From assembly GCA_964486995.1 (NCBI GenBank), contig CAZAOV010000001.1:15697-79696 (forward strand): DNA of 64,000 nucleotides, given 5' to 3'. The translations under genes were made by a program, and so were the position numbers. Below the pieces are notes generated by a model that was not told where the DNA came from, ran no database searches, and saw only the letters and a program-made list of their open reading frames with translations. Shown here piece after piece: positions 15,417-57,290 of the stretch; the first letter of the stretch is position 1, and every line of letters starts with the position of its first letter. The DNA is from an uncultured Gammaproteobacteria bacterium (lineage in GTDB: Bacteria > Patescibacteriota > Patescibacteriia > SG8-24).

Positions 15417-16449
15417 ATTGAGCGTAATGTACCTTTTTATCTTCCTCGATCATTCCTTTCACCAAATCACTGAACTTGATTCGCGGCTCCCAGCCAAGCT
15501 TCTCTTTGGCCTTCGTAGCATCGCCAATCAGCAAATCGATTTCAGCTGGACGGAAATAACGCGGGTCTATCTTGATAATCGCCTGGCCAGTCTTTCGATC
15601 TATCCCCTGCTCATGCAGGCCCTCACCTTTCCAGGTCAAATCAAATTCCATTTGATGGGCCGCTTCCTCAACGAAATCTCTAACGCTATGCGTCTCCCCC
15701 GTTGCCAAAACAAAATCATCCGGTTCGCTATGCTGGAGTATCTTCCACATTCCCTCAACATAGTCGCGAGCATGACCCCAGTCACGTTTTGCTTCCAGGT
15801 TACCCAAGAACAACGTGTCGTCCAAACCAGCTTTGATACGATTTAACCCTCTGGTTATTTTTCTGGTGACAAATGTTTCGCCCCGCCGTTCAGATTCGTG
15901 ATTAAACAAAATGCCGTTTGAAGCGAACAGATCGTAGCTTTCTCGATAGTTCTTGGTAATCCAATACGCATACACCTTAGCGCAACCATACGGCGAACGC
16001 GGATAGAACGGCGTGTTTTCTGTCTGCGGAATTTCTTGAACTTTTCCGAACATTTCACTGGAAGACGCCTGATAATAACGAACTTTTGGACAGATATCAC
16101 GTACTGCTTCCAATATACGCGTCGTGGACAGACCCGTGACGTCACCCGTGTATTCTGGAATATCAAAACTTACCCGAACGTGTGACTGCGCTCCAAGATG
16201 ATAAATTTCATCTGGAATAATCTTCTTGAGCAGTCGGGCGATGTTGCTGCTATCAGCCAAATCGCCATAATGCAAAATCAACCGACGGCCGACATCATGA
16301 GGGTCAGAATAGATATGGTCGATACGCTCCGTATTAAACGACGAGGCCCGGCGAATAATGCCATGCACCTCATAGCCCTTTTCAAGCAGGAGTTCCGCCA
16401 AATATGAACCATCCTGACCGGTTATTCCTGTTATTAACGCTTTTTTCAT
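15397..16449 (-). CDS. gmd: GDP-mannose 4,6-dehydratase
   Basis: [47 protein letters not shown]: a near-canonical Gmd N-terminus, 350 aa. Confidence 0.9.
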
Positions 16450-16474
16450 ACGGCTATACAGCTTAACATTATCG

Positions 16475-16756
16475 TTACCACTGCTTAGTTTTATCCTTCG
16501 TAGTTTTCTTCATTTTTTTGTAGGCTTTCGTTGCCGCCTGGTCTATTTCCGGTGATAGCATTCTCAAAATCTCATGGCCGAAGATGCGATGCTGATTCCC
16601 GACTTTGTTGGCGCGGAGCAAACCCTTCTTTATGAGACGCTTAAAAGTGCTCGAGCTAATCTTGAGCATCTGTTCCGTTTCCTTGGGCGTATAGATTTCG
16701 TTCGGATTTATCTCCATGCCGATCGCTAAAATGTGATTCACTCTACAAACACTCAT
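16475..16756 (-). CDS. Excisionase/MerR-family HTH DNA-binding protein
   Basis: [43 protein letters not shown] has an HTH_17-like pattern. Confidence 0.5.
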
Positions 16757-16892
16757 ATAATATCAATGGGTGTCATTAGGTGTCAAAAGGTAGCTGTTGA
16801 TATCATAAAAATGCGTGCGCATGATTCTAAGTTTGTCATCAACAAACGCACACTTTTTTTCACGAACGGCACAACTGTTAGTCAATATGACT

Positions 16893-17159
16893 ATCTGATC
16901 GGCTCCCCGACCTTAATCATTTTCTTGGCCCATTCAATGGTCTCCAGAATCCCTTACACCGGCAACACACCTGGACGGAAACCAATTTCTTTCTCGGCTT
17001 TAGACAGATCAAGCGACATATTTCGCGCATCACCCGGCTTTGCCGGACTGTGCTCAGGATACAAGCTGGCGCAAACAGCTTCATGGCCATCCATCTGGAA
17101 AACTGATACTAAATCCTGCCCCAGATTTCCTTTATCACCAAGAATTAATGTTCTCGCAT
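16893..17159 (-). pseudogene. Internally deleted remnant of an NAD(P)-dependent sugar epimerase/reductase gene
   Basis: The reverse strand encodes ...LILGDKGNLGQDLVSVFQMDGHEAVCASLYPEHSPAKPGDARNMSLDLSKAEKEIGFRPGVLPV*, then after the stop TIEWAKKMIKVGEPIR*. That is an N-terminal Rossmann start joined directly to a C-terminal tail that is DNA-homologous to the 3' end of 19701..20651. No in-frame start codon. Confidence 0.5.
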
Positions 17160-17220
17160 GATTACTCCTTAATAGATTTCAAAAGCGAAACTGTCCGTCT
17201 GCCAATATATTTATCATGCC

Positions 17221-18849
17221 TCAATTTAAACCTCTTTCCATTAGATATGCAATGACCTGTTCGGCGCATTCTTCCGGAGAATATTCTACGGTGTTCAGAA
17301 TCACCTCGGCGTTTTCGGAACGTTCGAACGGGTCATCTACGCCGGTGAAGTTCTTAAGCTGACCCAGTTCGGCTTTACGGTACAGCCCTTTCATGTCGCG
17401 CTGTTTGCAGACTTCTATAGGAGTATCTACCAGCACCTCGATGTAAGTTCCGGTTTTGCTTATTAGTTCTCGGTTCTTATCGCGGGTGGCCGCATACGGC
17501 GCAATCGTCGCGCAGATAGCGATGCCGCCGTGTTTGGTGATTTCGTTGGCGACGAAGCCGATACGTAAAATATTTGTATCGCGGTCCTCGCGGGAGAAGC
17601 CCAGGCCTTGCGATAGGTTGTTGCGAATTACGTCTCCGTCCAACACGGTAATCTCCCTATCCTGCACCTCACGCAGCTTGTCGTGCAGGATTTTTGCTAT
17701 CGTTGATTTACCGGAGCAAGACAGGCCAGTCATAAAAATCGTGAAACCGCGACGATTATCGCGCTGTACTGCTTTGCGCAATCCGGAAACTATTTCTGGA
17801 AAGGACAGCCACTCCGGCACATCTTCGCCCGCACGAATCATGCGACGCAGTTCTGTTCCGGAAATTTTTTCCGGTTGGTGGTGTTCCTCCAGCTCATGCG
17901 TGTAGAAGTATTTTTTCTCGGACGGCACGTAAGCAATTTCCTTTGGTGAGACAATCTCGATGCCAATTTCGTCCGCGTGTTCCCGCGCCAACTCCTGTGC
18001 ATCGTACGATCCGTAGTAATTCCCGCCCGGATCAGCGTGCCCGCGGCCGACGATGAAATGCGTACAGCCGTAGTTCTTTCTGATCTGCGCGTGCCACACC
18101 GCCTCGCGCGGACCGGCCATTCGCATCGCGAGCGGCAACAGGCTCAGCTTGGCGAAGTCGCTCATATAATTCTCTGCTACCTTGCGATAACAGCGCACAC
18201 GTGTGACATGATCGATATCCCCTGGCTTTGTCTCCCCTATGGTCGGATGGATTAGCACCTTGGCGTTGTGTTCCTCGGCCCCGCGACGCATCAGTTCGTA
18301 ATGAGCGCGATGAATCGGGTTGCGGGTCTGGAATCCGATTACCTTTTCCCAGCCGTTTTCGGCGAACCATTGTTTTAGCTCGTCTGGTCTATGGCGCAAG
18401 TCGATGAAACTTCCGTTACGGCCTTTTAGCTTCACGTCAGTGACTGGACCACCCAGATATACTCGACCGACATCGTCAAACAATTTCCGTACGCCGGCGT
18501 GATTTTTGTCTGTAGTCTGATAAATTTTTTCAGCCTCACGCAACTTGTCTGGTATGTATGTTGAAGTCACGTTCATGACTGCCGCCGGATTACCGTACTT
18601 GTCGCATAGTACGATTTCTTCGCCGACTTCGATATTGGCATTATTCACATCTAGGGCTATCGGCATTGACCACAATGCACCATCGGCTAATCGCATAATA
18701 TCTAAAACCGACTCGTAGTCCGCCTGATTCATAAATCCAGTGAGCGGTGCGAACGAGCCATCTAGTAACAGCTCCAAATCACAAAGCTGGCGGTCCGTTA
18801 GGTTGACCCGTCTCAACGTGGCAATTTTGTCTCTGATATTTTGCATCAT
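17221..18849 (-). CDS. sat-cysC: Bifunctional sulfate adenylyltransferase (ATP sulfurylase) / adenylylsulfate kinase, i.e. PAPS synthase
   Basis: N-terminal ATP-sulfurylase motifs QTRNPIHRAHYEL and HxxG. C-terminal APS kinase P-loop GFTIFMTGLSCSGKSTIAKIL. 542 aa. Confidence 0.9.
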   Translation of the reverse strand: MMQNIRDKIATLRRVNLTDRQLCDLELLLDGSFAPLTGFMNQADYESVLDIMRLADGALWSMPIALDVNNANIEVGEEIVLCDKYGNPAAVMNVTSTYIPDKLREAEKIYQTTDKNHAGVRKLFDDVGRVYLGGPVTDVKLKGRNGSFIDLRHRPDELKQWFAENGWEKVIGFQTRNPIHRAHYELMRRGAEEHNAKVLIHPTIGETKPGDIDHVTRVRCYRKVAENYMSDFAKLSLLPLAMRMAGPREAVWHAQIRKNYGCTHFIVGRGHADPGGNYYGSYDAQELAREHADEIGIEIVSPKEIAYVPSEKKYFYTHELEEHHQPEKISGTELRRMIRAGEDVPEWLSFPEIVSGLRKAVQRDNRRGFTIFMTGLSCSGKSTIAKILHDKLREVQDREITVLDGDVIRNNLSQGLGFSREDRDTNILRIGFVANEITKHGGIAICATIAPYAATRDKNRELISKTGTYIEVLVDTPIEVCKQRDMKGLYRKAELGQLKNFTGVDDPFERSENAEVILNTVEYSPEECAEQVIAYLMERGLN

Positions 18850-18852
18850 AGA

Positions 18853-19698
18853 TTAGCTTATTTTACTAGCCGTAACGACATATCCAACTCCAAAAGTTCT
18901 CAGCGGCACCAATCGCTCACCCACCGGTTCGGCCGCGGCTAAAACTTTATCGACTGCTGGTATTTTGATATTCGGAAACAGCCGCATACGCTTTAACGAT
19001 TCGATATCGAAACCATTAGCTTTCAGCGGTTCGGTGACCTGCTGTGAAGGCACATACATTTCGTCTGTCAGATAAAATCCGTTTCCGATTGGGCGAAGCT
19101 TGCCGGTATTCCAACCGTTCTTCTTGAGCCTCCATTTAATGATTGGATTGCCGCCGTTTGGCTCACTGATAATTAACTTACCATTCGTTTTGAGCAGCTT
19201 GCGCGTCTGCTTAAAGAAAAGCTCGTGTGGAACTATATGATGCAATGCTTCTTGCACATAAATGACATCGAATAGCTCATCTGGTGCGTATTCTGTAATG
19301 CTGTCCTCAACGAAGGTAATATTGTCCGCGCCCCAACGCTCGGCTCTCTCATGAGAAAGTTTTATGTAAACGGGGTTGATATCCAGGCCAATGACTTGAT
19401 GCGCGCCGGAAGCTGCAAGCAGTAGGCTCTGAGTACCCATTCCACAACCGACGTCCAAACATCTTTTGCCTGGCGCCGCGGACACGGCAGACTGAGTGCA
19501 CATACGATAGTAACGTCGACTCAGTTCTGTCGGACCTCGATAATAGCGGCTAAATTTTTTGAATATTTTATGAAATTCGGGACTGTACCATTCGGACAAC
19601 TCGCGATGCTCGTCTACGATATTCCCAAAAATCGCTGCGACCCTAGCGTCATGCGTTGGCAATTTTCTGAGCTGTGGAATATCGATGATTTCCGACAT
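18853..19698 (-). CDS. Class I SAM-dependent methyltransferase
   Basis: CLDVGCGMGTQSLLLAASGAHQVIGLDINP (motif I plus post-I). Confidence 0.7.
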   Translation of the reverse strand: MSEIIDIPQLRKLPTHDARVAAIFGNIVDEHRELSEWYSPEFHKIFKKFSRYYRGPTELSRRYYRMCTQSAVSAAPGKRCLDVGCGMGTQSLLLAASGAHQVIGLDINPVYIKLSHERAERWGADNITFVEDSITEYAPDELFDVIYVQEALHHIVPHELFFKQTRKLLKTNGKLIISEPNGGNPIIKWRLKKNGWNTGKLRPIGNGFYLTDEMYVPSQQVTEPLKANGFDIESLKRMRLFPNIKIPAVDKVLAAAEPVGERLVPLRTFGVGYVVTASKIS

Positions 19699-19700
19699 AT

Positions 19701-20651
19701 TTATCTAACCGGTTCCCCAGCCTCAATCATTTTCTTGGCCCAGGTGATTGTTTCGGGGATTCCTTCGGCTAGCAGAACCCCGGGACGGAAACCGATTTCC
19801 TGCTCGGCCTTAGATGGGTCTAATGAAACATTGCGCTCGTCACCTGGTTTGGCTGGGCCGTATTCTGGTTCCAGCTCTGTACCGACCGCTGACGCCACCG
19901 CATCATATAAATCTTTGACCGACGTTTCGGCGCCGGTGCCGACGTTGAATGCGCCGTCTGGATGTTTTTCTACCCCTTCGACGATCATGCGGGCGATGTC
20001 TTTTACGAAAACGAAATCGCGAGTCTGTTCGCCGGTGCCGTTGACTCGTGGCGCTTCGCCCTGAATCAATTTCTGCGTAAAAATAGAAATCACGCCGGAC
20101 TCACCTTTGATAGTCTGTCGCGGACCGTACACGTTACCAAACCGCAATGCGGTCGCGGCCAGCCCCCGCCGTCCAGCGAGCACCCGCAGATACAATTCAA
20201 ACGCATACTTCGCGATTCCGTACGGCGAGCCCGGCTCGCAGGGCATGTCTTCAGTGATGGGATTGGTCTTGATGGCTGGGCTGTAAACCGCGGCGGACGA
20301 GGCGAACACTATCCCCTTCGCACCTCCGGCAGTAGTTGCGTCAAGTACGTTAAGGCTACCGCCGATATTAATCTCCGAATCGATGCCGGGCTCCTCGTAT
20401 GAACTACGCAAGTCCACATGGGCGGCTAGATGCACTACTGCGACCGGCTTGATTTCTTCGAATAGCGAAATTAGTTCCTTGGAGCGGATATCCATCTCGT
20501 GCAAGGTCGCGTCCGGATGTACATACTGGCGAAAGCCGGTAGTGAAGTCATCAACGATATGGACGTTGTAGCCGCGTTCGACTAGTAAATCAGTTACGTG
20601 CGAACCGATGAAGCCGGCGCCGCCGGTTACGATTGCGTTTTTGGTGGACAT
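19701..20651 (-). CDS. NAD-dependent nucleotide-sugar epimerase/dehydratase (UDP-hexose 4-epimerase-like SDR)
   Basis: [34 protein letters not shown]; YGIAKYAFE (YxxxK). Confidence 0.85.
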   Translation of the reverse strand: MSTKNAIVTGGAGFIGSHVTDLLVERGYNVHIVDDFTTGFRQYVHPDATLHEMDIRSKELISLFEEIKPVAVVHLAAHVDLRSSYEEPGIDSEINIGGSLNVLDATTAGGAKGIVFASSAAVYSPAIKTNPITEDMPCEPGSPYGIAKYAFELYLRVLAGRRGLAATALRFGNVYGPRQTIKGESGVISIFTQKLIQGEAPRVNGTGEQTRDFVFVKDIARMIVEGVEKHPDGAFNVGTGAETSVKDLYDAVASAVGTELEPEYGPAKPGDERNVSLDPSKAEQEIGFRPGVLLAEGIPETITWAKKMIEAGEPVR

Positions 20652-20848
20652 ATATTCGATATTTTCATCCTGAGCGTAGCGTGAGAATCCCGATGTTTTA
20701 TCGTGGGCTTTCTTCTTGCTGCCACGGGATTGCGGCGCTGCACTCGCAATGACGGATTATGTGAGCGAGCTTGCGGAAACAGGGTTATTGGTTGGCTGGT
20801 GCGGTGATGTGGATTCCTGCCTTCGCAGGAATGACATGGTGGGGGGGG

Positions 20849-20858
20849 GGCGACACGG
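20849..20858. repeat. Homopolymeric G10 tract, intergenic
   Basis: tggggggggggcgac, about 150 bp upstream of the plus-strand gene at 21004. Confidence 0.9.
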
Positions 20859-21003
20859 GAGGGCGGAAACACACCTACCGAATCGGGCAGGGGCAAGCCC
20901 TGCGGCTATCATCATGGTAATCGCAATTTGATAATAACACATCCCGCATTGACTGACCGCCGCCAAGCTGATAACTTCATCAAGCAGCAAAACGGAGGAA
21001 AAC

Positions 21004-21477
21004 GTGACTAGTAAGTCCTTTACTCACCCGAAAAGTCCGACGATGTTGGGAGTGACTGGGCCCACTAGCGGTCCGGCCGGAGTGATTAATCCACACGCCC
21101 TGCCTGCACTCAATACCGGGTCGCGCTACGGCGATATCGTCGGGGCCATGATCCTGGTGATGTCCACGGCGCACGGTCAGGGTCGCGCTTGGATGAGTGT
21201 CCCCTATCACATCCTGTATTTTCAATGGATGTATCGTGAACTCGGCATCAAGGTGCATTCGCCCATATCCGGGAAGATTCCTAACGGCAAGGTGGATGCC
21301 GCACGGCTCGACGCGTTTCCAGACCCGGAAAGCGTATCGTTTACCGATGCGCAGGAAACGCTTAACAGCACGGTTCGGCATTTGCTTGCCGAGGGTTTCC
21401 TGACCGGCGTACGCGACGGTGAAGCCGACCATGTCGTTCCAACGGACAAACTGGTCAATGCAATCGTGAAAGACTGA
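21004..21477 (+). CDS. Hypothetical protein
   Basis: GTG start preceded by the RBS ggagga, and a rho-independent terminator immediately downstream. Preferred over the overlapping antisense ORF 20980..21483. Confidence 0.5.
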   Translation: MTSKSFTHPKSPTMLGVTGPTSGPAGVINPHALPALNTGSRYGDIVGAMILVMSTAHGQGRAWMSVPYHILYFQWMYRELGIKVHSPISGKIPNGKVDAARLDAFPDPESVSFTDAQETLNSTVRHLLAEGFLTGVRDGEADHVVPTDKLVNAIVKD

Positions 21478-21483
21478 TAACAA

Positions 21484-21510
21484 AACACGGGATTCGCCCG
21501 TGTTTTTTTG
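21484..21510 (+). terminator. Rho-independent terminator
   Basis: acacgggattcgcccgtgt hairpin followed by ttttttt. Confidence 0.6.
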
Positions 21511-21606
21511 TTGGGGGGTGCTCTGTGTGGGTTTCCGGTGCCCCTTTCCAACTTCCTTGGTTAATAAAATGGAAAGAGGCTTCCTTCTTGGCGGAAGGGG
21601 TCACGT

Positions 21607-22503
21607 TCAAAACAACGACACTAAAAATAAATAGACACGACACCCAAACAACGACGCCAGTAGCCGTACCCAGGTCCCGAGCATACGCGGCTGCACCAGA
21701 ATCGAGGACACAAACCGCTGGCGGGCCTGACGCATGCCACCCGCATTGATACAAAAGCTGCCCTCATGTCGATACCGCAGCGCCAGCGCCCGACGATGCG
21801 CGTCGTACAAATCACGCTGCTTAGCAATCGTCCTGTCACCGGCGGCGATGATGTCTTGACCAGAGACGTTCCGGGTCAGGCTGTTCGCACTGCGCTCGAA
21901 AGAAAACAGAAACTCATCGAGTACCGCTCCGCGCGCGACGCGCAAAATCCGAATCCATAAATCCCAATCCTCGGAACAGATCATATTTTCATCAAACGAC
22001 CCCACCTTTTTCAAAACACTTGTCTGCACTGCAGTGCCGGTCAAAAAACACGGGTTAGAAGAAAGATAAACATCCGGATTATTAATATCGGCCGGCATGT
22101 ACTCGTCGAACTGATTGGTAATTTGCCGGTCTTTTCCGTGCCCCCAGCCGCACACCAAACCGACATCAGAATCAACGAACGACGACGCGGCCCGCTCTAA
22201 AAGCGCCGGCTCCAACCGATCGTCCGAATCTAAAAACACGACGAATTCGCCGCGAGACAACACGATTCCTTTGTTGCGCGCACCGGCCGCGCCGTGATTT
22301 TTCGAAAGCGCCAGCACCTGAATGCGTTCGTCGCCTGCCGCACATTCTTTCGCCACCTTCAGAGTTTCGTCGGTGGACGCGTCATCAACGATAATCAGCT
22401 CCCAATCGCCGTCGGTCTGCGCTAATACGCTCTGAACCGCATTCCGCAAACAGTCAGCGCGGTTATAGGCCGGCACAATAATGGAAAATTTTGGGTTGGC
22501 CAT
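21607..22503 (-). CDS. Family 2 glycosyltransferase (GT2)
   Basis: FSIIVPAYNRADCLRNAVQSVLAQTDGDWELIIVDDASTDET...LDSDD. The called ORF extends to 22590, but the extra 29 aa are Pro-rich and are encoded by an intergenic GC hairpin repeat. The start MANPKF at 22503 is preferred. Confidence 0.8.
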   Translation of the reverse strand: MANPKFSIIVPAYNRADCLRNAVQSVLAQTDGDWELIIVDDASTDETLKVAKECAAGDERIQVLALSKNHGAAGARNKGIVLSRGEFVVFLDSDDRLEPALLERAASSFVDSDVGLVCGWGHGKDRQITNQFDEYMPADINNPDVYLSSNPCFLTGTAVQTSVLKKVGSFDENMICSEDWDLWIRILRVARGAVLDEFLFSFERSANSLTRNVSGQDIIAAGDRTIAKQRDLYDAHRRALALRYRHEGSFCINAGGMRQARQRFVSSILVQPRMLGTWVRLLASLFGCRVYLFLVSLF

Positions 22504-22606
22504 GTGTTCTGATTTAGCAGTGGCTGTGGATGTTTTATTTGATGGCGGTAGCTGCGGGGTTTGGCGGCGTGCCTCTAGGGGCAGGGGCAAGCCCTGCGGC
22601 TACGCA

Positions 22607-23590
22607 TTAGGAAAACAATAACCGGTCTGGATTCGGCTGGCCGTCACGGCCATATAAACCAGCCAACCTGAACTCGGCCAAAATTTCGCGACTGCGGCTA
22701 ATCTGTTCGTCGGATAATTCCTGCTGCCACGTCGTTAGCGGCGACCACTTATCTGCCCCGTCAACTACGGTCGTTCTGCTCTTGCTCTGACGCAATCGTT
22801 CCACCGCCTTTGGGTCAATTTTCGCTCGGTCATGACCGATATAATCATAAATCCGACCGAGCTGTTCCAACGGATAACGAACCACATCCTCATAAAACAG
22901 CGCCAGCAACTCATCTGATTTAAACTGCCGCATGAAAACATAGTTCTCAACAGCCCAAAGAACGACCTTGCGATAAAAATCATCGTTCTTGTATTCGGCG
23001 ATGACACGGTCAAACGGCTGCAGCCAATCTTCGACCAGTTCCGGCTGTTCCAGCGTCGCCAATTCCGGTTCGGGCCGAAACCAATCCTTTCGCTTGTATC
23101 GAGACAACGCCACCGCGAGCGGATTACGGACGATGTAAATCAATTTAACGTCAGCCAGCCGATTCATCGCCCAACGTGCCAGCAGCTGCGCGGTGACGTC
23201 TTTGACGAACAAGCCGCGATGCTTGATGAACAAATCGTCATACGCCGATGCGGCCGTTCCCCAGTCCGGCTGACGACCGACCGGCCGGCCGCTGAACACT
23301 CGCTCAAGGAGTTCGGCTAATCTCGGGCTGTCCGCTCCGGGCCGTACATAGTGCTGCCATATCGAACGGTTGGTTTTTGGATTGAACGGTTCGGTAATCT
23401 CACGATACCGACGGTCCCAATTAATGAGCCGCGGCACCCAAGTCGTACCGCTCCGCGCCGACCCGATGAGCCAGACCCGGTCGTGTTTGTAGTTCCCAAG
23501 CGCGTTATTCAGGTGTATCGTGGCCGGCCACAAAACCCGCCGATGGCATTCGGCGAGCGCGCGACCTAGTTTTTGGTGGGAGTACAGCAT
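22607..23590 (-). CDS. PAPS-dependent sulfotransferase (paralog of 1298..2299)
   Basis: WLIGSARSGTTWVPRLINW and IYIVRNPLAVALSRYKRK. The architecture is collinear with the first sulfotransferase. Confidence 0.75.
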   Translation of the reverse strand: MLYSHQKLGRALAECHRRVLWPATIHLNNALGNYKHDRVWLIGSARSGTTWVPRLINWDRRYREITEPFNPKTNRSIWQHYVRPGADSPRLAELLERVFSGRPVGRQPDWGTAASAYDDLFIKHRGLFVKDVTAQLLARWAMNRLADVKLIYIVRNPLAVALSRYKRKDWFRPEPELATLEQPELVEDWLQPFDRVIAEYKNDDFYRKVVLWAVENYVFMRQFKSDELLALFYEDVVRYPLEQLGRIYDYIGHDRAKIDPKAVERLRQSKSRTTVVDGADKWSPLTTWQQELSDEQISRSREILAEFRLAGLYGRDGQPNPDRLLFS

Positions 23591-23863: not shown

Positions 23864-24358
23864 ATGAAAACCTATCGCGAAATCGTCGAGACTGTAGCCG
23901 CCGCACTGCTTGGTCGCCTGTTGGATCCGCGGAGATATAATGTCGCCACTCCACAGTCCAGCCCGTGCGAACTTCGTCGCATGGGTCCGAATCCGAATCC
24001 GCTTATCGAATGTGAGGACAATGTCGTCCGATTGCTGTGTGCGGTACTGCTGAATCTCTCCGGAGGCGCCGGCTCGTACACGCACTGGAACGCGGTGTCG
24101 TATCGCTGGCTGCGGTATTCGATGCTGACCCTGCTCGGTGATGGCGGCCGTCGCGGTCGCACGCTGCTCGGTGGATTCGTCACCAAGTGCATCAACTTGG
24201 ACGCCCTGCCGCTCGACAAGCCAAGAGACGGCGGGCGTGGCGATTTCCACTGGGCGCTGGGGCAACTATTGGCGCTGCGCGCGGTCGAAATAATTGAGCA
24301 TGAGGGCGAGGACTATATCTGCCCGACGAGTCGTATCTTGCGGTTCGTGGCGGAGTGA
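23864..24358 (+). CDS. Hypothetical protein, first gene of the radical-SAM module
   Basis: RBS aaggagag 6 nt before the ATG (MKTYREIV...). The antisense ORFs 23849..24265 and 23872..24219 are rejected. It ends 19 nt before the next gene. Confidence 0.5.
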   Translation: MKTYREIVETVAAALLGRLLDPRRYNVATPQSSPCELRRMGPNPNPLIECEDNVVRLLCAVLLNLSGGAGSYTHWNAVSYRWLRYSMLTLLGDGGRRGRTLLGGFVTKCINLDALPLDKPRDGGRGDFHWALGQLLALRAVEIIEHEGEDYICPTSRILRFVAE

Positions 24359-24376
24359 TTTTCTGGAGGAGGATTC

Positions 24377-25306
24377 ATGTCTGTACAATGCATGAGCCTG
24401 GTGATCGGCACGCGCAAGTGTAACGCGCGGTGTCCGTTCTGCGTTTCGCAACAGACCGGTTTTGATAAAATCAGTCGCGGTCGCGAACGCAATATCAATT
24501 TCATCAATCTGGAAGAGGCGTGTGTGATGTGCGGGACTGCAAGTCCGCCCACGCTGCTCATGACCGGAAAGGGCGAGCCCACGCTGTACCCGGACGAAAT
24601 TACGCGATATCTGGAGTGGTTTCGGGAGAAGCCGTTTGCGCCCAAAGAGTTGCAGACCAACGCGCTGGCTATTGGCCGGCTGGCCGAGACTGGTCAAAGC
24701 GGCGTCGACGGGCTGGACGAGGAGACTCTTCGGCACTGGCGGTCGCTGCGGCTCGGTGTGGTGGCACTTTCTACGGTTGGGATTCATGACGCGGCCAACG
24801 CGGCGGTGTATCACCCTGATTATCCGTCGCTCGTGGATACCATCGCGTACCTGCGCGGGTTCGGGTTTACAGTTCGGTTGTGTGTGATGATGATGCGCGG
24901 CGAGGGCTGTGTGGCTGATATCGACGGTTTGGAGGAAGTGGTCGAGTTCTGCCGCGCGCATGACGTGGGTCAGCTCACCGCCCGGCCGATTACCGCGGCC
25001 GACAACGGTGGCGAGTCACGAGCCGCACGGTTCGTACGCGAACACGGTGTGTCGCCCGATGCGCCGCGGGAGCTGTACGAAGCGGTCGAAGCGCGCGCCC
25101 AGGCGCTGTATCCCCTGGCGCACGGCGCGATGGTGTTCGACTGGAACGGTCAAAATGTTTGCTTGTCGAACTGCCTGACCTCGGACATGCAGTCCGCCCC
25201 CGGCGACCACCGCTCGCTGATTTTCTTCAGCAACGGCATGATCACCACCAGCTGGGACCACGCCGAGGCCGCTGCACTGCTGCAGGGCGATCCTAATTAC
25301 GGCTAA
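24377..25306 (+). CDS. Radical SAM enzyme of unassigned subfamily
   Basis: RBS ggaggagg. CxxxCxxC at residues 15 to 22 (GTRKCNARCPFCVSQ), then a GGE-like TGKGEPTLY. 309 aa. No SPASM-type C-terminal Cys cluster recognised. Confidence 0.7.
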   Translation: MSVQCMSLVIGTRKCNARCPFCVSQQTGFDKISRGRERNINFINLEEACVMCGTASPPTLLMTGKGEPTLYPDEITRYLEWFREKPFAPKELQTNALAIGRLAETGQSGVDGLDEETLRHWRSLRLGVVALSTVGIHDAANAAVYHPDYPSLVDTIAYLRGFGFTVRLCVMMMRGEGCVADIDGLEEVVEFCRAHDVGQLTARPITAADNGGESRAARFVREHGVSPDAPRELYEAVEARAQALYPLAHGAMVFDWNGQNVCLSNCLTSDMQSAPGDHRSLIFFSNGMITTSWDHAEAAALLQGDPNYG

Positions 25307-25312
25307 TTCTTT

Positions 25313-25344
25313 AATCGTGGCTAATTTCAGCCACGATTTTTTTA
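25313..25344 (+). terminator. Rho-independent terminator
   Basis: atcgtggctaatttcagccacgat hairpin plus ttttttt, directly after the radical SAM stop. Confidence 0.55.
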
Positions 25345-25382
25345 TCCACAAAATAGGTGCCTGGCACCTATTTTGTGGATAA
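25342..25382. repeat. REP-like palindrome, copy 1
   Basis: ttatccacaaaataggtgcc|tggcacctattttgtggataa, a perfect 41-bp palindrome. Related copies at 27004 and 27653. Confidence 0.85.
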
Positions 25383-25428
25383 TTTAATATGACAGGTCGT
25401 TGGTAATGCACATTATAAAGAGGGTGGT

Positions 25429-26580
25429 ATGCAAATAATTTACGCAGCGCGGGACGCGCCAGAAACAATTACCAAGTCCATCTTTCTCGCCGGGCCGAGC
25501 CCACGAAAAGACGGGCAATACAACTGGCGACCGGATGCAATCAAAATCCTGGAGCAGCTGGGTTTTGATGGCACCGTGTTCATTCCGCTACCCGAAGACG
25601 GCGGCTGGCCACATTCGTACGACGAACAGGTCAACTGGGAAACGCGTCATCTGAATATGGCCGATGTGGTGGTGTTCTGGGTGCCGCGCGACCTTACAGA
25701 TCTGCCGGCCTTCACCACGAACGTGGAGTTCGGCATGTGGTACGACACCGGCAAAGCGGTGCTCGGGTACCCGCCGGACGCCAAAAAGATGAAATACCTC
25801 GACCATCACGCGCGTCGTGTCGGCACTCCGGTATGCGATACGCTCGAAATCACGCTACAGACTGCGGTGGACATGCTCGGGGATGGCGCTGCCCGCACAG
25901 ATGGCGAGCGTTTCGTGCCGCTGCACATCTGGCGGACTCCTCAGTTCCAGCAGTGGTACGCCGCGCAGACCACGGCTGGCAACCGACTCGACGGTGCGGA
26001 AGTGGTTTGGTCGTTTCGGCTGCAGCAAACCGGCAACGTTTTATTCTGGGCACTGCACGTGGACGTTCATATCGCCATTGAAAGTCGCAACAAGACTATC
26101 GAAATCGTTTTGTCGCGACCTGACCTGTCGGTCGTGGTGGCATACTACGACGACGAGGACACCGGCGACACCAAGGTGGTGTTGGTGCGCGAGTTCCGTT
26201 CGCCCGCTTCAACTAAGGATGGTTTCGTGCTGGAACTGCCGGGCGGTTCTAGCAAGAATCCAGAAAAAACACCGGCCGAGATAGCCATCGACGAATTCCA
26301 CGAAGAAACCGGCCTGAAGCTCGACCCAAAATATCTGACACCAGTCGAATCGCGCCAGCTTGCCGCTACCTTGTCGGCGCACCGCGCTCACGTGTTCACC
26401 TACCAACTGGACGACGATGAGTACCAGGCGCTACTCGAACAGACCAACCAAACACACGGTGAGTCGGACGATACCGAACTGACTTACCTAGAAATCCATT
26501 CGCTCGACGACATCCTCTACGGAGATGAAATCGAGCTGGACTGGTCCAATCTAGGAATGCTTTATCTGGCGATCGGCTAA
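25429..26580 (+). CDS. Fusion protein: N-terminal nucleoside 2-deoxyribosyltransferase/DNPH1-like (nucleotide N-glycosidase fold) domain plus C-terminal NUDIX hydrolase domain
   Basis: N-terminus: SIFLAGPSPRKDG...ADVVVFWVP...NVEFGMWYDTGKAVLGY (compare DNPH1/Rcl VYFCGSIRGG...ADVVVAEV...GVGYELGRAVALGK). C-terminus: Nudix box ELPGGSSKNPEKTPAEIAIDEFHEETGLKL. Confidence 0.6.
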   Translation: MQIIYAARDAPETITKSIFLAGPSPRKDGQYNWRPDAIKILEQLGFDGTVFIPLPEDGGWPHSYDEQVNWETRHLNMADVVVFWVPRDLTDLPAFTTNVEFGMWYDTGKAVLGYPPDAKKMKYLDHHARRVGTPVCDTLEITLQTAVDMLGDGAARTDGERFVPLHIWRTPQFQQWYAAQTTAGNRLDGAEVVWSFRLQQTGNVLFWALHVDVHIAIESRNKTIEIVLSRPDLSVVVAYYDDEDTGDTKVVLVREFRSPASTKDGFVLELPGGSSKNPEKTPAEIAIDEFHEETGLKLDPKYLTPVESRQLAATLSAHRAHVFTYQLDDDEYQALLEQTNQTHGESDDTELTYLEIHSLDDILYGDEIELDWSNLGMLYLAIG

Positions 26581-26593
26581 GATAATATAAGAA

Positions 26594-26622
26594 GCCGCCT
26601 CTTTAACGAGGCGGTCTTATTA
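26594..26622 (+). terminator. Rho-independent terminator
   Basis: gccgcctctttaacgaggcggt hairpin followed by a T-rich tail. Confidence 0.5.
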
Positions 26623-26675
26623 TTGACAAATCAATATAATCGACATAAGGTGCACGGCTCAGCAAGGAGGAACAC

Positions 26676-26984
26676 ATGGACAGAGAAGGCTGGGGCTTGA
26701 TTGGTTTGGTTCTTGGCACACTTTTCATCATCGCGGTCATCGCGTTCAGCTGTCTGCGTGGATTTGCGGTGGAGCCGCAAACCGCCATCGAAGCCGCCGA
26801 GACCATAGGATTCACCGATGTCACGGTGACCGACGAGAACTACATGTGTATGGCGTGGCAGGGCTGCGACCGCAACGACGCCGTTGGATTCGAAATGACT
26901 GCCACCAACGCCCAAGGTGAGCGCGTCGATATCATGGTCTGCTGCGGCTGGCCGTTCAAGGGGTGCACCATCCGCACCAACTAA
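26676..26984 (+). CDS. Small membrane-anchored hypothetical protein
   Basis: RBS aaggagga. N-terminal TM helix (GLIGLVLGTLFIIAVIAF). 102 aa. Confidence 0.45.
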   Translation: MDREGWGLIGLVLGTLFIIAVIAFSCLRGFAVEPQTAIEAAETIGFTDVTVTDENYMCMAWQGCDRNDAVGFEMTATNAQGERVDIMVCCGWPFKGCTIRTN

Positions 26985-26998
26985 CTCCCGAGAGCTGC

Positions 26999-27616
26999 TT
27001 ACTTTATCCCCAGAATAGGTGCCTGGCACCTATTCTGGGGATAATTTTTTTCCTTCAAAATTTGGCGGCCAATTTCTATATGTTCAATATAATTTTGCAT
27101 CGCTTCATCCTCATTGTTTCCAAAATGACTCAATATCCAAAACCGATCGAGAAAACCTGGTTCCGGATCAAGTCCAACAATCTCTCTATATGACCCCCAA
27201 GGCCAATCAACCGAATGCTCAACAAAACCGTCTTTCACCGGATTCAGGGCGATATACCGACACACCTCTAAAAAATATCTTTCACTGTCTATGATTTTGC
27301 TATCGTATCTCCGCTGATACACCCTGCCCAAAAAGCCGTATTTCTCATTAAAATATTTTGCATAATCGCCGTTAAGCTTTTGCATACCAATGGACAAATT
27401 GCCTTTAGGCACGTAAAGACCCAAATGATTGTGGTTTCTCATTTGGCAATGCGAAAAACTTTTCCAGTCACAGCCTTCGCACACATCAGCTAGTATCGTA
27501 TTGAAAACGATTCTATCCTGATTATCTAAATAAATATCCCCCTTGCGGTTGCCACGGGTAGTTACATGCACCAACATGCCCTCAAATTGTATTCGCGGTT
27601 TTCTAGGCATCGCCAT
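26999..27616 (-). mobile_element. IS200/IS605-type Y1 (HUH) transposase, probably a REP-associated tyrosine transposase (RAYT)
   Basis: PRKPRIQFEGMLVHVTTRGNRKGDIY...HCQMRNHNHLGLY...RYFLEVCRYIALNPVKDGFV has the Y1_Tnp pattern. The gene is flanked by REP-like palindromes at 27004 and 27653. Its last 14 codons are read through the palindrome. Confidence 0.6.
27004..27044. repeat. REP-like palindrome, copy 2
   Basis: ttatccccagaataggtgcc|tggcacctattctggggataa. Overlaps the 3' end of the RAYT ORF. Confidence 0.85.
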
Positions 27617-27652
27617 TCCTTTACCCCACAGCGATGAAACCGTAAATAGTAC

Positions 27653-27692
27653 TTATCCACAAATTGGTGCCTGGCACCTATTCTGGGGATAA
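27653..27692. repeat. REP-like palindrome, copy 3 (imperfect)
   Basis: ttatccacaaattggtgcc|tggcacctattctggggataa, 37 bp upstream of the RAYT start. Confidence 0.8.
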
Positions 27693-27739
27693 AATAATTA
27701 AAAAAGACCGGAGCTGTCCGATCTTTTTACTTCTTCTAA

Positions 27740-27949
27740 TTAATCAAACTTCTCCGAGCCGCACCTCTTAGAAACCTCTCCGCGCAACACCTCAATATGC
27801 CGCTTTTCGTCTTCCAAAATATCGCGTAACGCCGCTGCGCTCTCGCAACCTTCGGCCTCGGCGTCTTTTACGTAGTAATTCTCCAGCCGCCACGCATTAT
27901 CCATCTTAGACAGCATCATCTTCACCAAATTGTAGTTAACATTACGCAT
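27740..27949 (-). CDS. Small hypothetical protein
   Basis: 69 aa with an ExxH motif (DEKRHIE), directly downstream of the COG0523 GTPase. Uncertain whether it is real. Confidence 0.3.
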   Translation of the reverse strand: MRNVNYNLVKMMLSKMDNAWRLENYYVKDAEAEGCESAAALRDILEDEKRHIEVLRGEVSKRCGSEKFD

Positions 27950-27969: not shown

Positions 27970-28914
27970 TTACGGCTCAATCCTAGCATTTTTCTCCAGC
28001 TCTGTCAGGATAGCTTCCTTGTGTTCTTCGGCATACGGACCGACAAACAAAATCTCGGTCTCTTCAACCTCGCCGGTAAACAACTGCCACGTCACGCGAC
28101 TGAACACCGAATTCATCACCTGCCAGCCGTCGGCCGTGCGAATCAGACCCTTGGCACGCCAAATGTCGCGCGTGTTCATCATCTCCAGCACGGCCTGAAC
28201 CTTGGCTGGATCAAATACACCGTCCGCCGAATGAAAACTGAACGCCTGCATGTGCAGATGTTCGGCATGCTCCAGACCCTCCCCGATTTCATCCGCGGTT
28301 AGCCGCCGCACTGCCGACCCTTCGTCCAAGCCAATCACTGCCTCGACCGGAATCGAACCGTCATTGGTTTTGATGTTGGGCATGTTAGGATAATACTCGA
28401 AAACCAAATCCAATACGTCATCGAGCCGCCGGTCGTCAACCAGGCCAATCTTATTGATTACCGCGAAATCCACGTACTTGGTGTAAGACTGCCGCACTAT
28501 CGGCGGTTCCTCGAATCCACCGAAATTCACCGCGTCAATAACTTCGACCACGCTATCGATAATGATATTGTCGAATCGCTTCAGCTCCATCACGATTGGC
28601 GCTGGATGTGCCGTGCCAGCCGTTTCAATAATCACACGGTCCGGTTTCATCTCCAGAATCTTCTCCATCGCAACTTCTAGCGCACCTATAGCCGTACAGC
28701 ACAGGCAGCCGTTCATGATTTCCTCGGTCTCGATACTCGCTTCGCGCGCCAGCCGGCTGTCGACGTTCACGTCACCATACTCGTTCTTCAGCCAAATCAC
28801 CTGGTAGTCCTCGCTGGCGATTTGCTTGACTAGGCTCATGATGACGGTCGTCTTACCCGAACCTAGCTCCCCCATCACGATGTTGACTGGTGTTTTTCCG
28901 TTTTTCTGTGCCAT
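27970..28914 (-). CDS. CobW/COG0523 family G3E GTPase (putative metallochaperone)
   Basis: P-loop MGELGSGKTTVIMSL, metal-binding GCLCCT, and a C-terminal CobW_C-like region. Confidence 0.85.
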   Translation of the reverse strand: MAQKNGKTPVNIVMGELGSGKTTVIMSLVKQIASEDYQVIWLKNEYGDVNVDSRLAREASIETEEIMNGCLCCTAIGALEVAMEKILEMKPDRVIIETAGTAHPAPIVMELKRFDNIIIDSVVEVIDAVNFGGFEEPPIVRQSYTKYVDFAVINKIGLVDDRRLDDVLDLVFEYYPNMPNIKTNDGSIPVEAVIGLDEGSAVRRLTADEIGEGLEHAEHLHMQAFSFHSADGVFDPAKVQAVLEMMNTRDIWRAKGLIRTADGWQVMNSVFSRVTWQLFTGEVEETEILFVGPYAEEHKEAILTELEKNARIEP

Positions 28915-56801: not shown

Positions 56802-57290
56802 TTAGCAACTCCTTATCTTTCGTATAGTTGGCCAAAAAAGGAAGTGGCAATTGCTTTCACTTACATCTAGAAATCTCACCCATTCAACTGACTTAACCTC
56901 TCCGTCAATGACTGATTTTGGCGTACCCTCTTTACCTTCAACAATTTCCACTTGATGCATCATGGCAACGACATGATAAAACCTGTCGTCTTTTTCTATG
57001 TGCAAATATCTTTCTGCTAAATCGTAAAATTCAGATGATTTAACCTTGTATCCAGTCTCCTCTAGAACCTCTCGATGAAGAGCCTCTTTAACGCTTTCGC
57101 CCATATCCATCCCACCACCAGGAAACGCGTACAAACCATGATGGGGCCTGACCATCAAGATTGAGTCATCTCGGATAATCACGGCATAAACCGTCGGTCG
57201 CCAAAAAATTTCTACGTCGGCCGGGATTTCTTTTTCAATCCCTTGATTGTCATCAAAATAATTCATACTCATGCATCCTATCACACCCAA
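56802..57290 (-). CDS. NUDIX hydrolase
   Basis: Nudix box FPGGGMDMGESVKEALHREVLEETG. Confidence 0.75.
   Translation of the reverse strand: MGVIGCMSMNYFDDNQGIEKEIPADVEIFWRPTVYAVIIRDDSILMVRPHHGLYAFPGGGMDMGESVKEALHREVLEETGYKVKSSEFYDLAERYLHIEKDDRFYHVVAMMHQVEIVEGKEGTPKSVIDGEVKSVEWVRFLDVSESNCHFLFWPTIRKIRSC

Follow-up and report, generated by a model that had tools for sequence, protein, structure and literature searches.

Three consecutive genes of a Patescibacteria (CPR) contig, here called g1, g2 and g3, raise the question of whether a protein of no recognizable family, a radical SAM enzyme (rSAM) and a fusion of a nucleoside 2-deoxyribosyltransferase (NDT)-like domain with a Nudix domain form one functional module, and on which nucleotides such a module would act. 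The analyzed stretch of 64,000 nucleotides (64 kb) is referred to below as the window. The reading that we favor, with confidence and doubt about evenly balanced, is that g2 and g3 serve pyridine-nucleotide (NAD/ADP-ribose) homeostasis as accessory enzymes, and that they constitute neither a defense system nor a conserved trio with g1.

Organization of the locus

All three open reading frames were confirmed on the plus strand: g1 at 23864-24358 (164 aa from its ATG, or 191 aa if a TTG at 23783 is used), g2 at 24377-25306 (309 aa) and g3 at 25429-26580 (383 aa). Their starts are preceded by Shine-Dalgarno-like sequences (AAGGAGAG, GGAGGAGG and AAGAGGGTGG, respectively), in agreement with the original prediction of three co-directional genes, each with a ribosome binding site. 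The tight spacing that it also described applies to g1 and g2 (18 nt), the sole tight pair, but not to g2 and g3, which are separated by 122 nt. This spacer contains a terminator-like hairpin directly 3' of g2 (25313-25338, plus strand), with an equivalent hairpin after the rSAM gene of locus L001, a REP palindrome, and a promoter-like site 5' of g3 (25389-25416, plus strand), recognized by consensus match only. Another terminator-like hairpin lies 3' of g3 (26594-26615, plus strand). Gene g3 is a separate transcription unit from g2, and g1, an orphan restricted to this lineage, is co-transcribed with g2.

The g1 protein matches nothing in Pfam, NCBIfam, PHROGs or PADLOC, as expected of a protein described as lacking a recognizable family, and it shows no relationship to NrtR. 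A HMMER search of 1.84 billion representatives found only two homologs, P0242 (48% identity) and P0243 of L001 (34%). The gene lies upstream of the rSAM gene in loci L001 and L337, and its linkage to g2 is limited to the closest relatives. A conserved three-gene module was not recovered, with g1 present in two close relatives only and every close relative of g2 devoid of g3.

Sequence and fold of the radical SAM enzyme

The g2 protein passes the Pfam Radical_SAM model (PF04055; 31.2 bits against a cut-off of 29.5). It carries the cluster motif C15-x3-C19-x2-C22 (CxxxCxxC; 24419-24442), whose three cysteines are invariant in 33 homologs, and an invariant GGE-type SAM-binding motif, GKGEP (G66, E67 and P68), which bears out the proposed radical SAM enzyme with an N-terminal cluster and a GGE-like motif. 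Three further cysteines (C169, C262 and C266) are invariant in the family and, judging from their conservation in the sequence, may hold a second cluster. The predicted model (pLDDT 88) consists of alternating beta/alpha elements in a partial TIM-barrel fold; its top Foldseek matches are all radical SAM enzymes, the nearest folds being MoaA, viperin-like enzymes, DesII and BlsE.

The cut-off of no curated family (MoaA, viperin, NrdG) was reached, NCBIfam scores being 13-19 bits against the required 131-490. The NrdG2 model gave 13.8 bits (cut-off 131), the MoaA model TIGR02666 16.3 bits (284) and the viperin model NF038283 15.1 bits (180), while models of PflA and QueE were not among the NCBIfam matches. 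The extra cysteines are spaced differently from the three-Cys cluster of MoaA, and the PADLOC pVip matches (15.2 and 12.5 bits; E 0.003 and 0.018) are sub-threshold and cover the N-terminal 75 residues only.

Orthology of g2 to NrdG, PflA, QueE, MoaA or viperin was ruled out by NCBIfam scores far under the cut-offs. The prediction thus survives one of its own challenges, that g2 might be a housekeeping enzyme such as NrdG, PflA or QueE, and its viperin option is lost, viperin-like enzymes appearing only among the fold neighbors.

Domain structure of the fusion protein

The g3 protein passes both PF15891 (Nuc_deoxyri_tr2; 55.7 bits against 30), at aa 16-117 (25474-25779, plus strand), and PF00293 (NUDIX; 27.9 bits against 21.1), and stays just under the cut-off of PF05014 (26.9 bits against 28.8). 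The fusion of an NDT/DNPH1-like N-terminus with a Nudix C-terminus is therefore upheld, including the NDT-like assignment, whose possible failure in a profile search had been named as a weak point. Its catalytic residues are invariant in about 30 homologs (41-63% identity), among them E71, D79 and E100 of the TTNVEFG motif in the NDT-like domain; the same motif is aligned by a PDB profile match, 4mcj. Among the matches listed by two structural searches with g3 there was no NDT-fold entry, all being Nudix proteins.

The Nudix module is full-length (aa ~183-383; 25975-26577, plus strand) and has the Nudix fold together with a beta domain at its N-terminus, an architecture that it shares with NudF and NUDT5. 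Its nearest sequences and folds are ADP-ribose (ADPR) pyrophosphatases, NUDT5, the Nudix domain of NrtR with bound ADPR, and NadM-Nudix; the module is of the ADP-ribose/ADP-sugar pyrophosphatase type and not an NTP pyrophosphatase, one of the options first envisaged. The Nudix box (26245-26316, plus strand) is non-canonical with respect to GX5EX7REUXEEXGU, with a one-residue insertion that gives a spacing of x8; only E289, E292, E293 and G295 are invariant in it, and conservation extends neither to the first Glu nor to the Arg. More than 2000 homologs of this PF15891-ADPRase fusion were found, most with about 50% identity to the window copy, and the named ones are all from Patescibacteria.

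Genomic neighborhoods of the two families

The g2 family has members in CPR bacteria, DPANN archaea and Obscuribacterales as well as on phage contigs. In a sample of 68 species-level loci, in which neighbors were identified by Pfam, its genes recurrently share location and direction with NAD genes in different phyla: one or more core NAD families lie within 3 kb of the rSAM gene in 47 loci, and two or more in 38. The families concerned are NADK/NadD (32 loci), PncB (24), NadE (24), NrtR (23), PncA (18), NadA (8) and NadR (8); NadB is also among the core NAD genes near the rSAM gene. Typical gene orders are PncB-rSAM-NadE (Uhrbacteria and Aenigmatarchaeota), PncB-PncA-NadE-rSAM-AT-like-NrtR-NadA-NADK (DPANN) and NadA-x-rSAM-NadB. 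The AT-like gene, encoding a HisC/CobD-like PLP enzyme, adjoins the rSAM gene in 18 loci, 8 of which have no NAD gene nearby, a point against a role in NAD metabolism. It also counts against such a role that we know of no canonical NAD reaction that needs radical chemistry. In the literature we found no paper describing a link of the rSAM or the NDT-Nudix protein to NAD metabolism. The earlier reading of the locus as nucleotide modification or salvage holds for salvage in a broad sense, but it had omitted the chromosomal NAD/NrtR context, which is the conserved one for both families.

Full-length g3 fusions are directly adjacent to a g2-type gene in L033, L064 and L067, and lie within the same operon in L051, L083, L087 and L168, so that the association of g2 with g3, at least, recurs in other genomes. 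Stand-alone PF15891 proteins were identified in NAD operons of DPANN archaea (L025, L030, L038, L069 and L074); the fusion or the stand-alone domain thus occurs in NAD operons of Saccharibacteria, Sungbacteria, Parcubacteria and DPANN archaea. Sampling from the side of g3 revealed NAD genes within 5 kb in 7 of 60 lineages. Most g3 homologs are not near NAD genes, and a Ro60/TROVE protein is found near g3 as frequently as NAD genes (8 of 60 lineages), both of which speak against the NAD reading.

Phage-like contigs (L187, L191-193 and others) carry the cassette PncA-rSAM-PncB-NadD-NadE, with PHROGs for RNA ligase and tRNA nucleotidyltransferase next to it. IMG/VR contigs contain members of both families, although many of the "viral" g3 contigs are pieces of CPR chromosomes (L276 is the same contig as L159). 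What the analysis shows for g2 and g3 is the identity of their domains, the conservation of their catalytic residues, and the repeated occurrence of both families within NAD operons, on phage contigs as well as in CPR bacteria and DPANN archaea.

Arrangement of g2 and g3 in the present genome

A tblastn search of all NAD-gene clusters against the 64 kb of the window matched only g2, g3 and one small Nudix gene, and revealed no canonical NAD gene or NrtR. The small Nudix gene (56802-57290) is unrelated. The window clade of g2 (L001, L002, L014, L015, L174 and L175; 58-68% identity) consists entirely of solo rSAM genes located beside a sulfated-glycan cluster and a pair formed by a 69-aa gene and cobW, which argues against the NAD reading; since the clade has this setting, the function of its g2 may have drifted. 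Every close relative lacks g3 and has the arrangement rSAM -> <- 69aa <- cobW. In the rSAM of L337 an internal stretch is deleted in frame. The window clade has as its closest outgroup the PncB-rSAM-NadE type, and the g2 lineage of the present genome has left the NAD operon.

Gene g3 is located inside a 2.35-kb block bounded by REP/RAYT sequences and absent from all close relatives. The left edge is formed by a REP copy at 25341-25385, with a 41-nt perfect palindrome (25342-25382), as noted previously between the second and third genes. The palindrome is present in three copies of 41-45 nt (0 expected by chance), and the other two (27003-27047 and 27651-27695) flank a RAYT gene (26999-27616, minus strand) encoding an IS200-like Y1 transposase (PF01797; 37.2 bits against a cut-off of 23), an organization characteristic of a REP/RAYT element. 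The RAYT gene reported about 500 bp downstream is indeed present, at a distance of 419 nt from g3. Between them, within the block, is a 102-aa open reading frame with a hydrophobic N-terminus (26676-26984, plus strand), without a homolog in any fetched locus. The 69-aa gene (27740-27949, minus strand), which has no Pfam match, has copies with 67-80% identity beside the rSAM gene in L001, L014, L174, L175/176 and L002. It is the convergent immediate neighbor of the rSAM gene in all close relatives and therefore marks the right edge of the insertion. Thus, in the present genome g3 came next to g2 secondarily, within the REP/RAYT-bounded block, and because a terminator and a REP lie between the two genes and g3 belongs to the insertion, their adjacency in the window could be due to chance.

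This leads to the strongest alternative, possible but in our view rather unlikely, in which g2 and g3 are unrelated neighbors: g3, a lone housekeeping scavenger of nucleotides or ADP-ribose, would have been dropped beside g2 by a REP/RAYT rearrangement, and the role of the rSAM would have changed. An example of such a role is a DesII/BlsE-like modification of nucleotide sugars for the sulfated surface-glycan cluster. The arrangement of all close relatives without g3, the REPs exactly at the insertion edges, the terminator after g2 with a promoter-like site before g3, the deletion in the L337 rSAM, the presence of DesII and BlsE among the structural neighbors of g2, and the mostly unrelated contexts of the g3 family are all consistent with this explanation. 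Moreover, the rSAM gene of each clade member lies at the edge of sulfotransferase, PAPS synthase, epimerase and glycosyltransferase genes, and in L174 it follows the sulfotransferase gene on the same strand; in the window, L001 and L002, however, the glycan genes and the rSAM gene lie on different strands. It is also harder to reconcile with this explanation that the rSAMs of the window clade retain every family-invariant residue and nest next to the PncB-rSAM-NadE type, and that g2 and g3 are juxtaposed in a distant clade of Patescibacteria as well. Under this explanation the window would hold a second, independent juxtaposition, which for two given genes is presumably unlikely to arise by chance in a genome of about a thousand genes.

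Proposed role in NAD homeostasis

For a role of g2 and g3 in NAD/ADP-ribose homeostasis, the substrates and the sequence of steps set out below, as well as any coupling between the functions of the two enzymes, are our inference. The g3 protein would be a two-step recycling enzyme, whose C-terminal Nudix module would cut the pyrophosphate of ADP-ribose to yield AMP and ribose-5-phosphate or, alternatively, NAD(H) to yield AMP and NMN. Its N-terminal PF15891 domain, in which the NDT/DNPH1-type Glu is kept, would hydrolyze the N-glycosidic bond of NMN/NaMN, possibly of AMP, or alternatively of NAD itself. The free base and ribose-5-phosphate could then re-enter the Preiss-Handler route (PncA, PncB, NadD and NadE). 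The MoaA/viperin-like g2 would presumably act on a nucleotide of the pathway, taking a hydrogen from its sugar by means of a 5'-deoxyadenosyl radical.

A bolder version, which we offer as a tentative and somewhat doubtful suggestion, is that the rSAM family catalyzes a new radical step on NAD, NaMN or ADP-ribose, with PF15891(-ADPRase) proteins as recycling partners and the phage cassette as a fourth NAD-reconstitution pathway. In this version some lineages would pair the rSAM with the HisC/CobD-like PLP enzyme, and the role of the PF15891(-ADPRase) proteins would include a long-orphan activity of the NMN-nucleosidase type. To our knowledge, the pathways of NAD biosynthesis and salvage are considered to be essentially complete; if the suggestion is true, an rSAM found regularly in Preiss-Handler and de novo NAD operons would represent a missing reaction, a repair step or a regulatory step. 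The organisms concerned get by with minimal genomes and rely on cofactors supplied by a host, and the PF15891-ADPRase fusion is a candidate enzyme for recovering base and ribose phosphate from NAD/ADP-ribose. Being small and soluble, both proteins lend themselves to direct tests in vitro, and the phage cassettes connect the question to NAD depletion and reconstitution in phage-host conflict.

It is improbable that g3 acts instead in RNA repair or the metabolism of ADP-ribose derivatives, with an indirect link to NAD. It might, for example, clear by-products of the ADP-ribose 1''-phosphate type from NAD-dependent RNA 2'-phosphotransferase reactions. The most consistent close neighbor of g3 in metagenome loci is the Ro60/TROVE-vWA protein (10 loci; 8 of 60 lineages; partly from related genomes), a 5'-3' exonuclease is repeatedly present near g3, as is an AAA_18 kinase-like protein, and the NAD cassette of phage contig L191 has Ro-like, RNA-ligase and CCA-adding enzyme genes as neighbors. 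There is, however, no RNA-repair gene near g3 in the window, and the embedding of g3/PF15891 between PncA, PncB, NadE and NADK in several phyla would be hard to explain. Very improbable is the suggested defensive role, in which a viperin-like rSAM would make a modified nucleotide and the NDT-Nudix protein would act in depletion or detoxification (anti-phage, or anti-defense on phages): the weak pVip matches (E 0.003 and 0.018), the viperin-like fold neighbors, the mobile REP/RAYT context, the IMG/VR contigs carrying both families, and a phage NAD cassette that could rebuild NAD after NADase defenses, by analogy with NARP1-3 (PMC13464706), are opposed by a viperin score of 15 bits against 180, by the lack of any matching defense model (PADLOC-DB 2.0 gave nothing for g1 or g3 and 15-bit pVip noise for g2), by conserved neighbors that are housekeeping NAD genes and NrtR in reduced genomes rather than defense islands, by the non-conserved trio, and by the many "viral" g3 contigs of CPR chromosomal origin.

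Comparison with known systems

The g2 protein shares with MoaA and the viperin-like ddhNTP synthases an N-terminal CxxxCxxC core, a partial TIM barrel and a length of about 300 aa, and these enzymes are its best structural matches (MoaA, E 1e-10, TM 0.62; viperin-like enzymes, TM ~0.58). MoaA (GTP 3',8-cyclase) and viperin both abstract a ribose hydrogen from a nucleotide. The extra conserved cysteines of g2 recall those of MoaA, which hold a second cluster. Identity is only 13-16%, however, with no sequence-level PDB match better than E 0.006; g2 has few conserved basic residues for triphosphate binding, and its family resides in NAD operons, in contrast to molybdopterin synthesis (MoaA) or antiviral kinase-linked loci (viperin). 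The fold neighbors of g2 include DesII and BlsE, two radical SAM enzymes with nucleotide sugars as substrates, the former of which is paired with the PLP aminotransferase DesI. The 18 loci in which the rSAM gene adjoins that of a HisC/CobD-like PLP enzyme resemble the DesI/DesII pairing; however, there is no sequence-level relationship, neither the window nor any Patescibacteria locus with g3 has the PLP partner, and sugar-nucleotide genes are missing from the operons.

The pre-box motif of g3, REFRSP...ELPGGS, is similar to that of ADPRases such as NudF and NUDT5. NadM-Nudix provides an earlier example of an ADPRase joined to an NAD enzyme; in g3 the fusion partner is an NDT-like domain, not a winged helix (NrtR) or an adenylyltransferase (NadM-Nudix). 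DNPH1 (Rcl) hydrolyzes the N-glycosidic bond of nucleoside 5'-monophosphates, a type of reaction like the one that we propose for g3. The two have in common with the NDTs (PF05014) a Rossmann-like NDT fold, predicted in the case of g3, the Glu of T-x-x-E-x-G and an Asp (D79), whereas the ADPRase fusion and the NAD-operon context set g3 apart; its sole solved relative found by sequence (PDB 4mcj, PF15891) is an uncharacterized protein.

Three phage pathways of NAD reconstitution have been described: NARP1 (Adps and Namat), NARP2 (NadV and NMNAT) and NARP3 (PnuC and NadR), the last of which reuses host-type salvage enzymes (PMC13464706). The phage rSAM cassette differs from them in having a radical SAM enzyme and a Preiss-Handler set, but resembles them in being a putative NAD-rebuilding gene set, with host-type salvage enzymes as in NARP3.

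Organization of the g1-g2-g3 region

ORF calling identified three plus-strand genes at the positions of the original prediction: g1 (23864-24358; 164 aa), g2 (24377-25306; 309 aa), encoding a radical SAM enzyme (rSAM), and g3 (25429-26580; 383 aa), encoding a fusion of NDT-like and Nudix domains. A purine-rich ribosome-binding site lies in front of every one of them, in agreement with the strong signals expected, and the tight spacing described for the trio holds for g1-g2 (18 nt) but not for g2-g3 (122 nt). The g2-g3 spacer contains (i) a terminator-like hairpin (25313-25338), (ii) the anticipated REP-like element, a 41-nt perfect palindrome (25342-25382), and (iii) a promoter-like site (25389-25416); another terminator-like hairpin is located 3' of g3 (26594-26615). 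Further palindrome copies (27003-27047 and 27651-27695) lie on either side of a minus-strand Y1-transposase (RAYT) gene (26999-27616), which gives three copies in total, where none is expected by chance. The GC3 values of g1, g2, g3 and a 102-aa ORF (0.68-0.75) are just slightly higher than those of the neighboring genes (0.58-0.66; RAYT, 0.43) and do not help to trace the origin of the region.

The rSAM gene is parted from a minus-strand gene encoding a 69-aa protein (27740-27949) by a 2.35-kb block (25341-27695) with the order REP, g3, 102-aa ORF, REP, RAYT, REP. In all close relatives, these two genes are immediate convergent neighbors, and in locus L001, fetched from another genome, they are separated by 365 bp beginning with an equivalent terminator hairpin. 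Within the window clade (g2 plus its closest rSAM relatives), the 69-aa gene invariably converges on the rSAM gene and is the better conserved of the two (67-80% vs. 58-68% identity); it lies just 3' of the rSAM gene in L001, L002, L014, L174, L175 and L176 (the contig of L015 stops shortly after the rSAM gene). Its product has no Pfam match. The gene that usually follows encodes a cobW-type GTPase (27970-28914 in the window; also in L001, L014 and L174). Neither g3 nor RAYT was found in the loci of the g2 homologs sharing 58-68% identity (L001, L002, L014, L015, L174 and L175), and no homologs of the 102-aa ORF and RAYT were detected among the 337 fetched loci. The simplest reading is that g3 came to its present site secondarily, within a REP/RAYT-associated insertion, and is transcribed separately; two cargo genes seem to have traveled with, or been accreted by, the REP/RAYT unit.

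As foreseen, g1 belongs to no recognizable family: Pfam, NCBIfam, PHROGs and PADLOC gave no match. When 1.84 billion representative proteins were searched exhaustively with HMMER, only two real homologs emerged (48 and 34% identity), each encoded directly upstream of a g2 homolog (L001 and L337), and g1 is therefore a lineage-restricted orphan tied to g2. With g1 so narrowly distributed and g3 lacking in close g2 relatives, the three-gene module proposed originally is not conserved. Two matches to long repeat proteins (P0244 and P0245) covered short low-complexity stretches, and a degenerate NrtR or winged-helix regulator was rejected by profile-profile comparison (probability 0.3%). The rSAM gene adjoining the g1 homolog of L337 (835-1191) has an in-frame internal deletion, joining residues 1-97 to 285-309, which reflects either gene decay or misassembly of this 1.5-kb contig.

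The radical SAM family of g2 and its NAD gene neighborhoods

The radical SAM assignment of g2 was supported by Pfam (31.2 bits; cut-off 29.5). Judging by its sequence, g2 represents a distinct, unnamed radical SAM family: curated models of MoaA, viperin, NrdG and others scored 13-19 bits against cut-offs of 131-490, which argues against a housekeeping ortholog, and the best match of the family profile among PDB sequences had an E-value of 0.006. Curated orthology was also rejected at the level of NCBIfam, PHROGs and PDB sequence profiles, which match the N-terminal core motif only. The solved structures closest to the predicted model (pLDDT 88) are MoaA (E 1e-10, TM 0.62), SuiB, viperin-like enzymes, DesII and BlsE, at 13-16% identity; the substrates of these enzymes, SuiB (a peptide maturase) excepted, are nucleotides, nucleosides or nucleotide sugars. 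Beyond the cysteines of the SAM-cluster motif, the family has three more that are invariant (C169, C262 and C266) and may hold a second cluster. The named closest homologs of both g2 and g3 belong to the Patescibacteria group (CPR bacteria).

For the g2 family, one genome per species was scanned, yielding 80 loci from Patescibacteria, DPANN archaea, Obscuribacterales, Polyangiaceae, Planctomycetota, Chloroflexota, Acidobacteriota and some proteobacterial MAGs, in which ORFs were called and clustered, and recurrent clusters were identified by Pfam. Nearly all recurrent neighbors of the rSAM gene are NAD genes: NAD kinase (NADK) and NadD (also fused), nicotinate phosphoribosyltransferase PncB, NAD synthase NadE, NrtR (a Nudix-type NAD regulator), nicotinamidase PncA, NadR, NadA and NadB, as well as those for PRPP synthetase, ADP-ribosylglycohydrolase, a small Nudix protein of the ADPR type and a PnuC-like transporter. 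The rSAM ORF clustered cleanly in 68 loci; in 47 of these, one or more core NAD families lie no farther than 3 kb from it, and in 38, two or more. The rSAM gene is placed on the same strand inside operons, such as NADK-PncB-rSAM-NadE, PncB-PncA-NadE-rSAM-AT-like-NrtR-NadA-NADK and NadA-x-rSAM-NadB. We know of no canonical NAD step that needs radical chemistry, which is what makes this association interesting. The idea that the rSAM substitutes for a missing NadD was discarded: within the "NAD kinase" cluster, the proteins of ~190 aa are NadD (GGSFNPxHxGH), linked to it via NadD-NADK fusions.

In 18 loci, the rSAM gene abuts a gene for a PLP enzyme (AT-like; ~346 aa), a distant relative of histidinol-phosphate aminotransferase (HisC) and threonine-phosphate decarboxylase (CobD) in which the lysine motif SFSKPYG is invariant; the two genes are translationally coupled (e.g., L039, L047, L050, L053, L059, L061, L062, L066, L069, L075, L079, L081, L084-L086, L090 and L093). 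Eight of these 18 loci have no NAD gene nearby, and the rSAM and AT-like genes constitute an uncharacterized two-gene cassette; the AT-like gene is absent from the window. Some DPANN NAD operons additionally encode SAM-dependent methyltransferases of ~500-520 aa (c31; L039 and L085) or ~307-322 aa (c56; L084 and L086), which suggests further undescribed pyridine-nucleotide chemistry. By eye, the N-terminal segment of one of them is nucleotidyltransferase-like, and Pfam detects the methyltransferase domain only.

The g3 fusion protein and its genomic contexts

Both domains predicted for g3 were recovered by Pfam (PF15891 Nuc_deoxyri_tr2, 55.7 vs. 30; PF00293, 27.9 vs. 21.1). The family profile matches ADPR/ADP-sugar pyrophosphatases at the sequence level; in the Nudix part, the metal-binding glutamates E289, E292 and E293 and residue G295 are invariant, a constancy not shared by the first Glu or the Arg that the canonical Nudix box specifies. 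The N-terminal domain has an invariant Glu in TTNVEFG, at the position of the catalytic nucleophile of NDT/DNPH1-type enzymes, plus D79 and E71. The predicted model has a pLDDT of 85, and both PDB structure searches, meant to place the NDT domain, were swamped by Nudix matches. There are more than 2000 g3 homologs; the best 120 of these share about 50-63% identity with the window copy, and those with a named source are all from Patescibacteria.

Full-length g3-type fusions adjoin the rSAM gene or share an NAD operon with it in Sungbacteria (L033), Saccharibacteria (L051, L064, L067, L087 and L168) and Parcubacteria (L083), and NAD operons of DPANN archaea (L025, L030, L038, L069 and L074) encode PF15891 as a separate protein of ~150 aa. 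In a neighbor-joining tree of rSAM proteins, these g3-associated rSAMs form a distant patescibacterial clade, so the g2-g3 adjacency of the window was not inherited from this arrangement. The window clade is monophyletic, has no NAD neighbors and is placed beside the PncB-rSAM-NadE type. No canonical NAD genes were found in the 64-kb window. Immediately upstream of g1 lies a minus-strand sulfated surface glycan cluster (15397-23590), to our knowledge unusual for a CPR bacterium, encoding PAPS synthase (ATP sulfurylase and APS kinase in one bifunctional protein, plus a PUA domain), a methyltransferase, epimerases, GDP-mannose dehydratase, a GT2 glycosyltransferase and a sulfotransferase.

Putative functions and alternative readings

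The domain identities, conserved catalytic residues and conserved genomic company are direct observations; that g2 and g3 are enzymes of NAD/ADP-ribose metabolism, rather than parts of something else, is an evenly balanced proposition. The ADPRase-like half of g3 would split the pyrophosphate of ADP-ribose (or NAD(H)), and the NDT-like half would hydrolyze an N-glycosidic bond, either in a pyridine (or adenine) mononucleotide or in NAD itself; acting in either order, the two halves may feed nicotinamide/nicotinate and ribose-5-phosphate back to PncA/PncB. The g2 protein may perform radical hydrogen abstraction from the sugar of a nucleotide in the NAD/ADP-ribose pathway.

The main alternative, possible though rather unlikely, is that the adjacency of g2 and g3 is accidental here and that the window-clade rSAM has drifted to another role, e.g., nucleotide-sugar modification for the neighboring glycan cluster; provided that the contig is correctly assembled, the internally deleted rSAM of L337 is a hint that this clade can do without the gene. 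Seen from g3, the NAD link is weaker: among 80 metagenome loci selected for their g3 homologs (60 lineages at 70% identity clustering), NAD genes occur within 5 kb in 7 lineages and an rSAM in only 1, and a Ro60/TROVE protein is found near g3 instead in 8. A tie of g3 to RNA repair is improbable and, like a role in defense, less supported than accidental adjacency. The defense role suggested originally, for which the PADLOC search was negative, is the least probable of all; g1-g3 is not a novel defense module.

The Ro60/TROVE-vWA proteins (about 520-570 aa) are encoded at most 2 kb from g3 homologs (L111, L120, L129, L137, L139, L142, L148, L152, L156 and L160), roughly as frequently as NAD genes, and a 5'-3' exonuclease and an AAA_18 kinase-like protein are likewise recurrent in these loci.

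Phage-like contigs and comparison with known NAD pathways

Both the g2 and g3 families are present in IMG/VR. Some of the contigs are pieces of CPR chromosomes (L276 is identical to contig L159), and others, densely packed with small co-directional ORFs, look like large phages. The uniform 298-aa radical SAM proteins of IMG/VR loci L235-L257, which match g2 over residues 15-174 only (about 26% identity), probably constitute a different phage family, outside the g2/NAD finding. On about eleven phage-like contigs (L187, L190-L193, L195, L200, L203, L207, L220 and L229), the rSAM gene is surrounded by NAD genes, and L187 and L191-L193 contain a Preiss-Handler NAD cassette that includes it (PncA-rSAM-PncB-NadD-NadE). 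The cassette of L191 is flanked by matches to phage RNA ligase, Ro-like RNA-binding protein and tRNA nucleotidyltransferase (CCA-adding enzyme) families.

In the open-access literature, we found neither radical SAM enzymes described as part of NAD operons nor any account of a PF15891-Nudix fusion. What is new is the presence of two unrecognized enzyme families within NAD salvage/homeostasis gene sets, of which g2 and g3 of the window are a detached, secondarily juxtaposed pair of representatives. The three described phage NAD reconstitution pathways (NARP1-3) operate without a radical SAM enzyme, NARP3 being composed of PnuC and NadR (PMC13464706), and the rSAM-containing Preiss-Handler cassette of the IMG/VR contigs differs from each of them.
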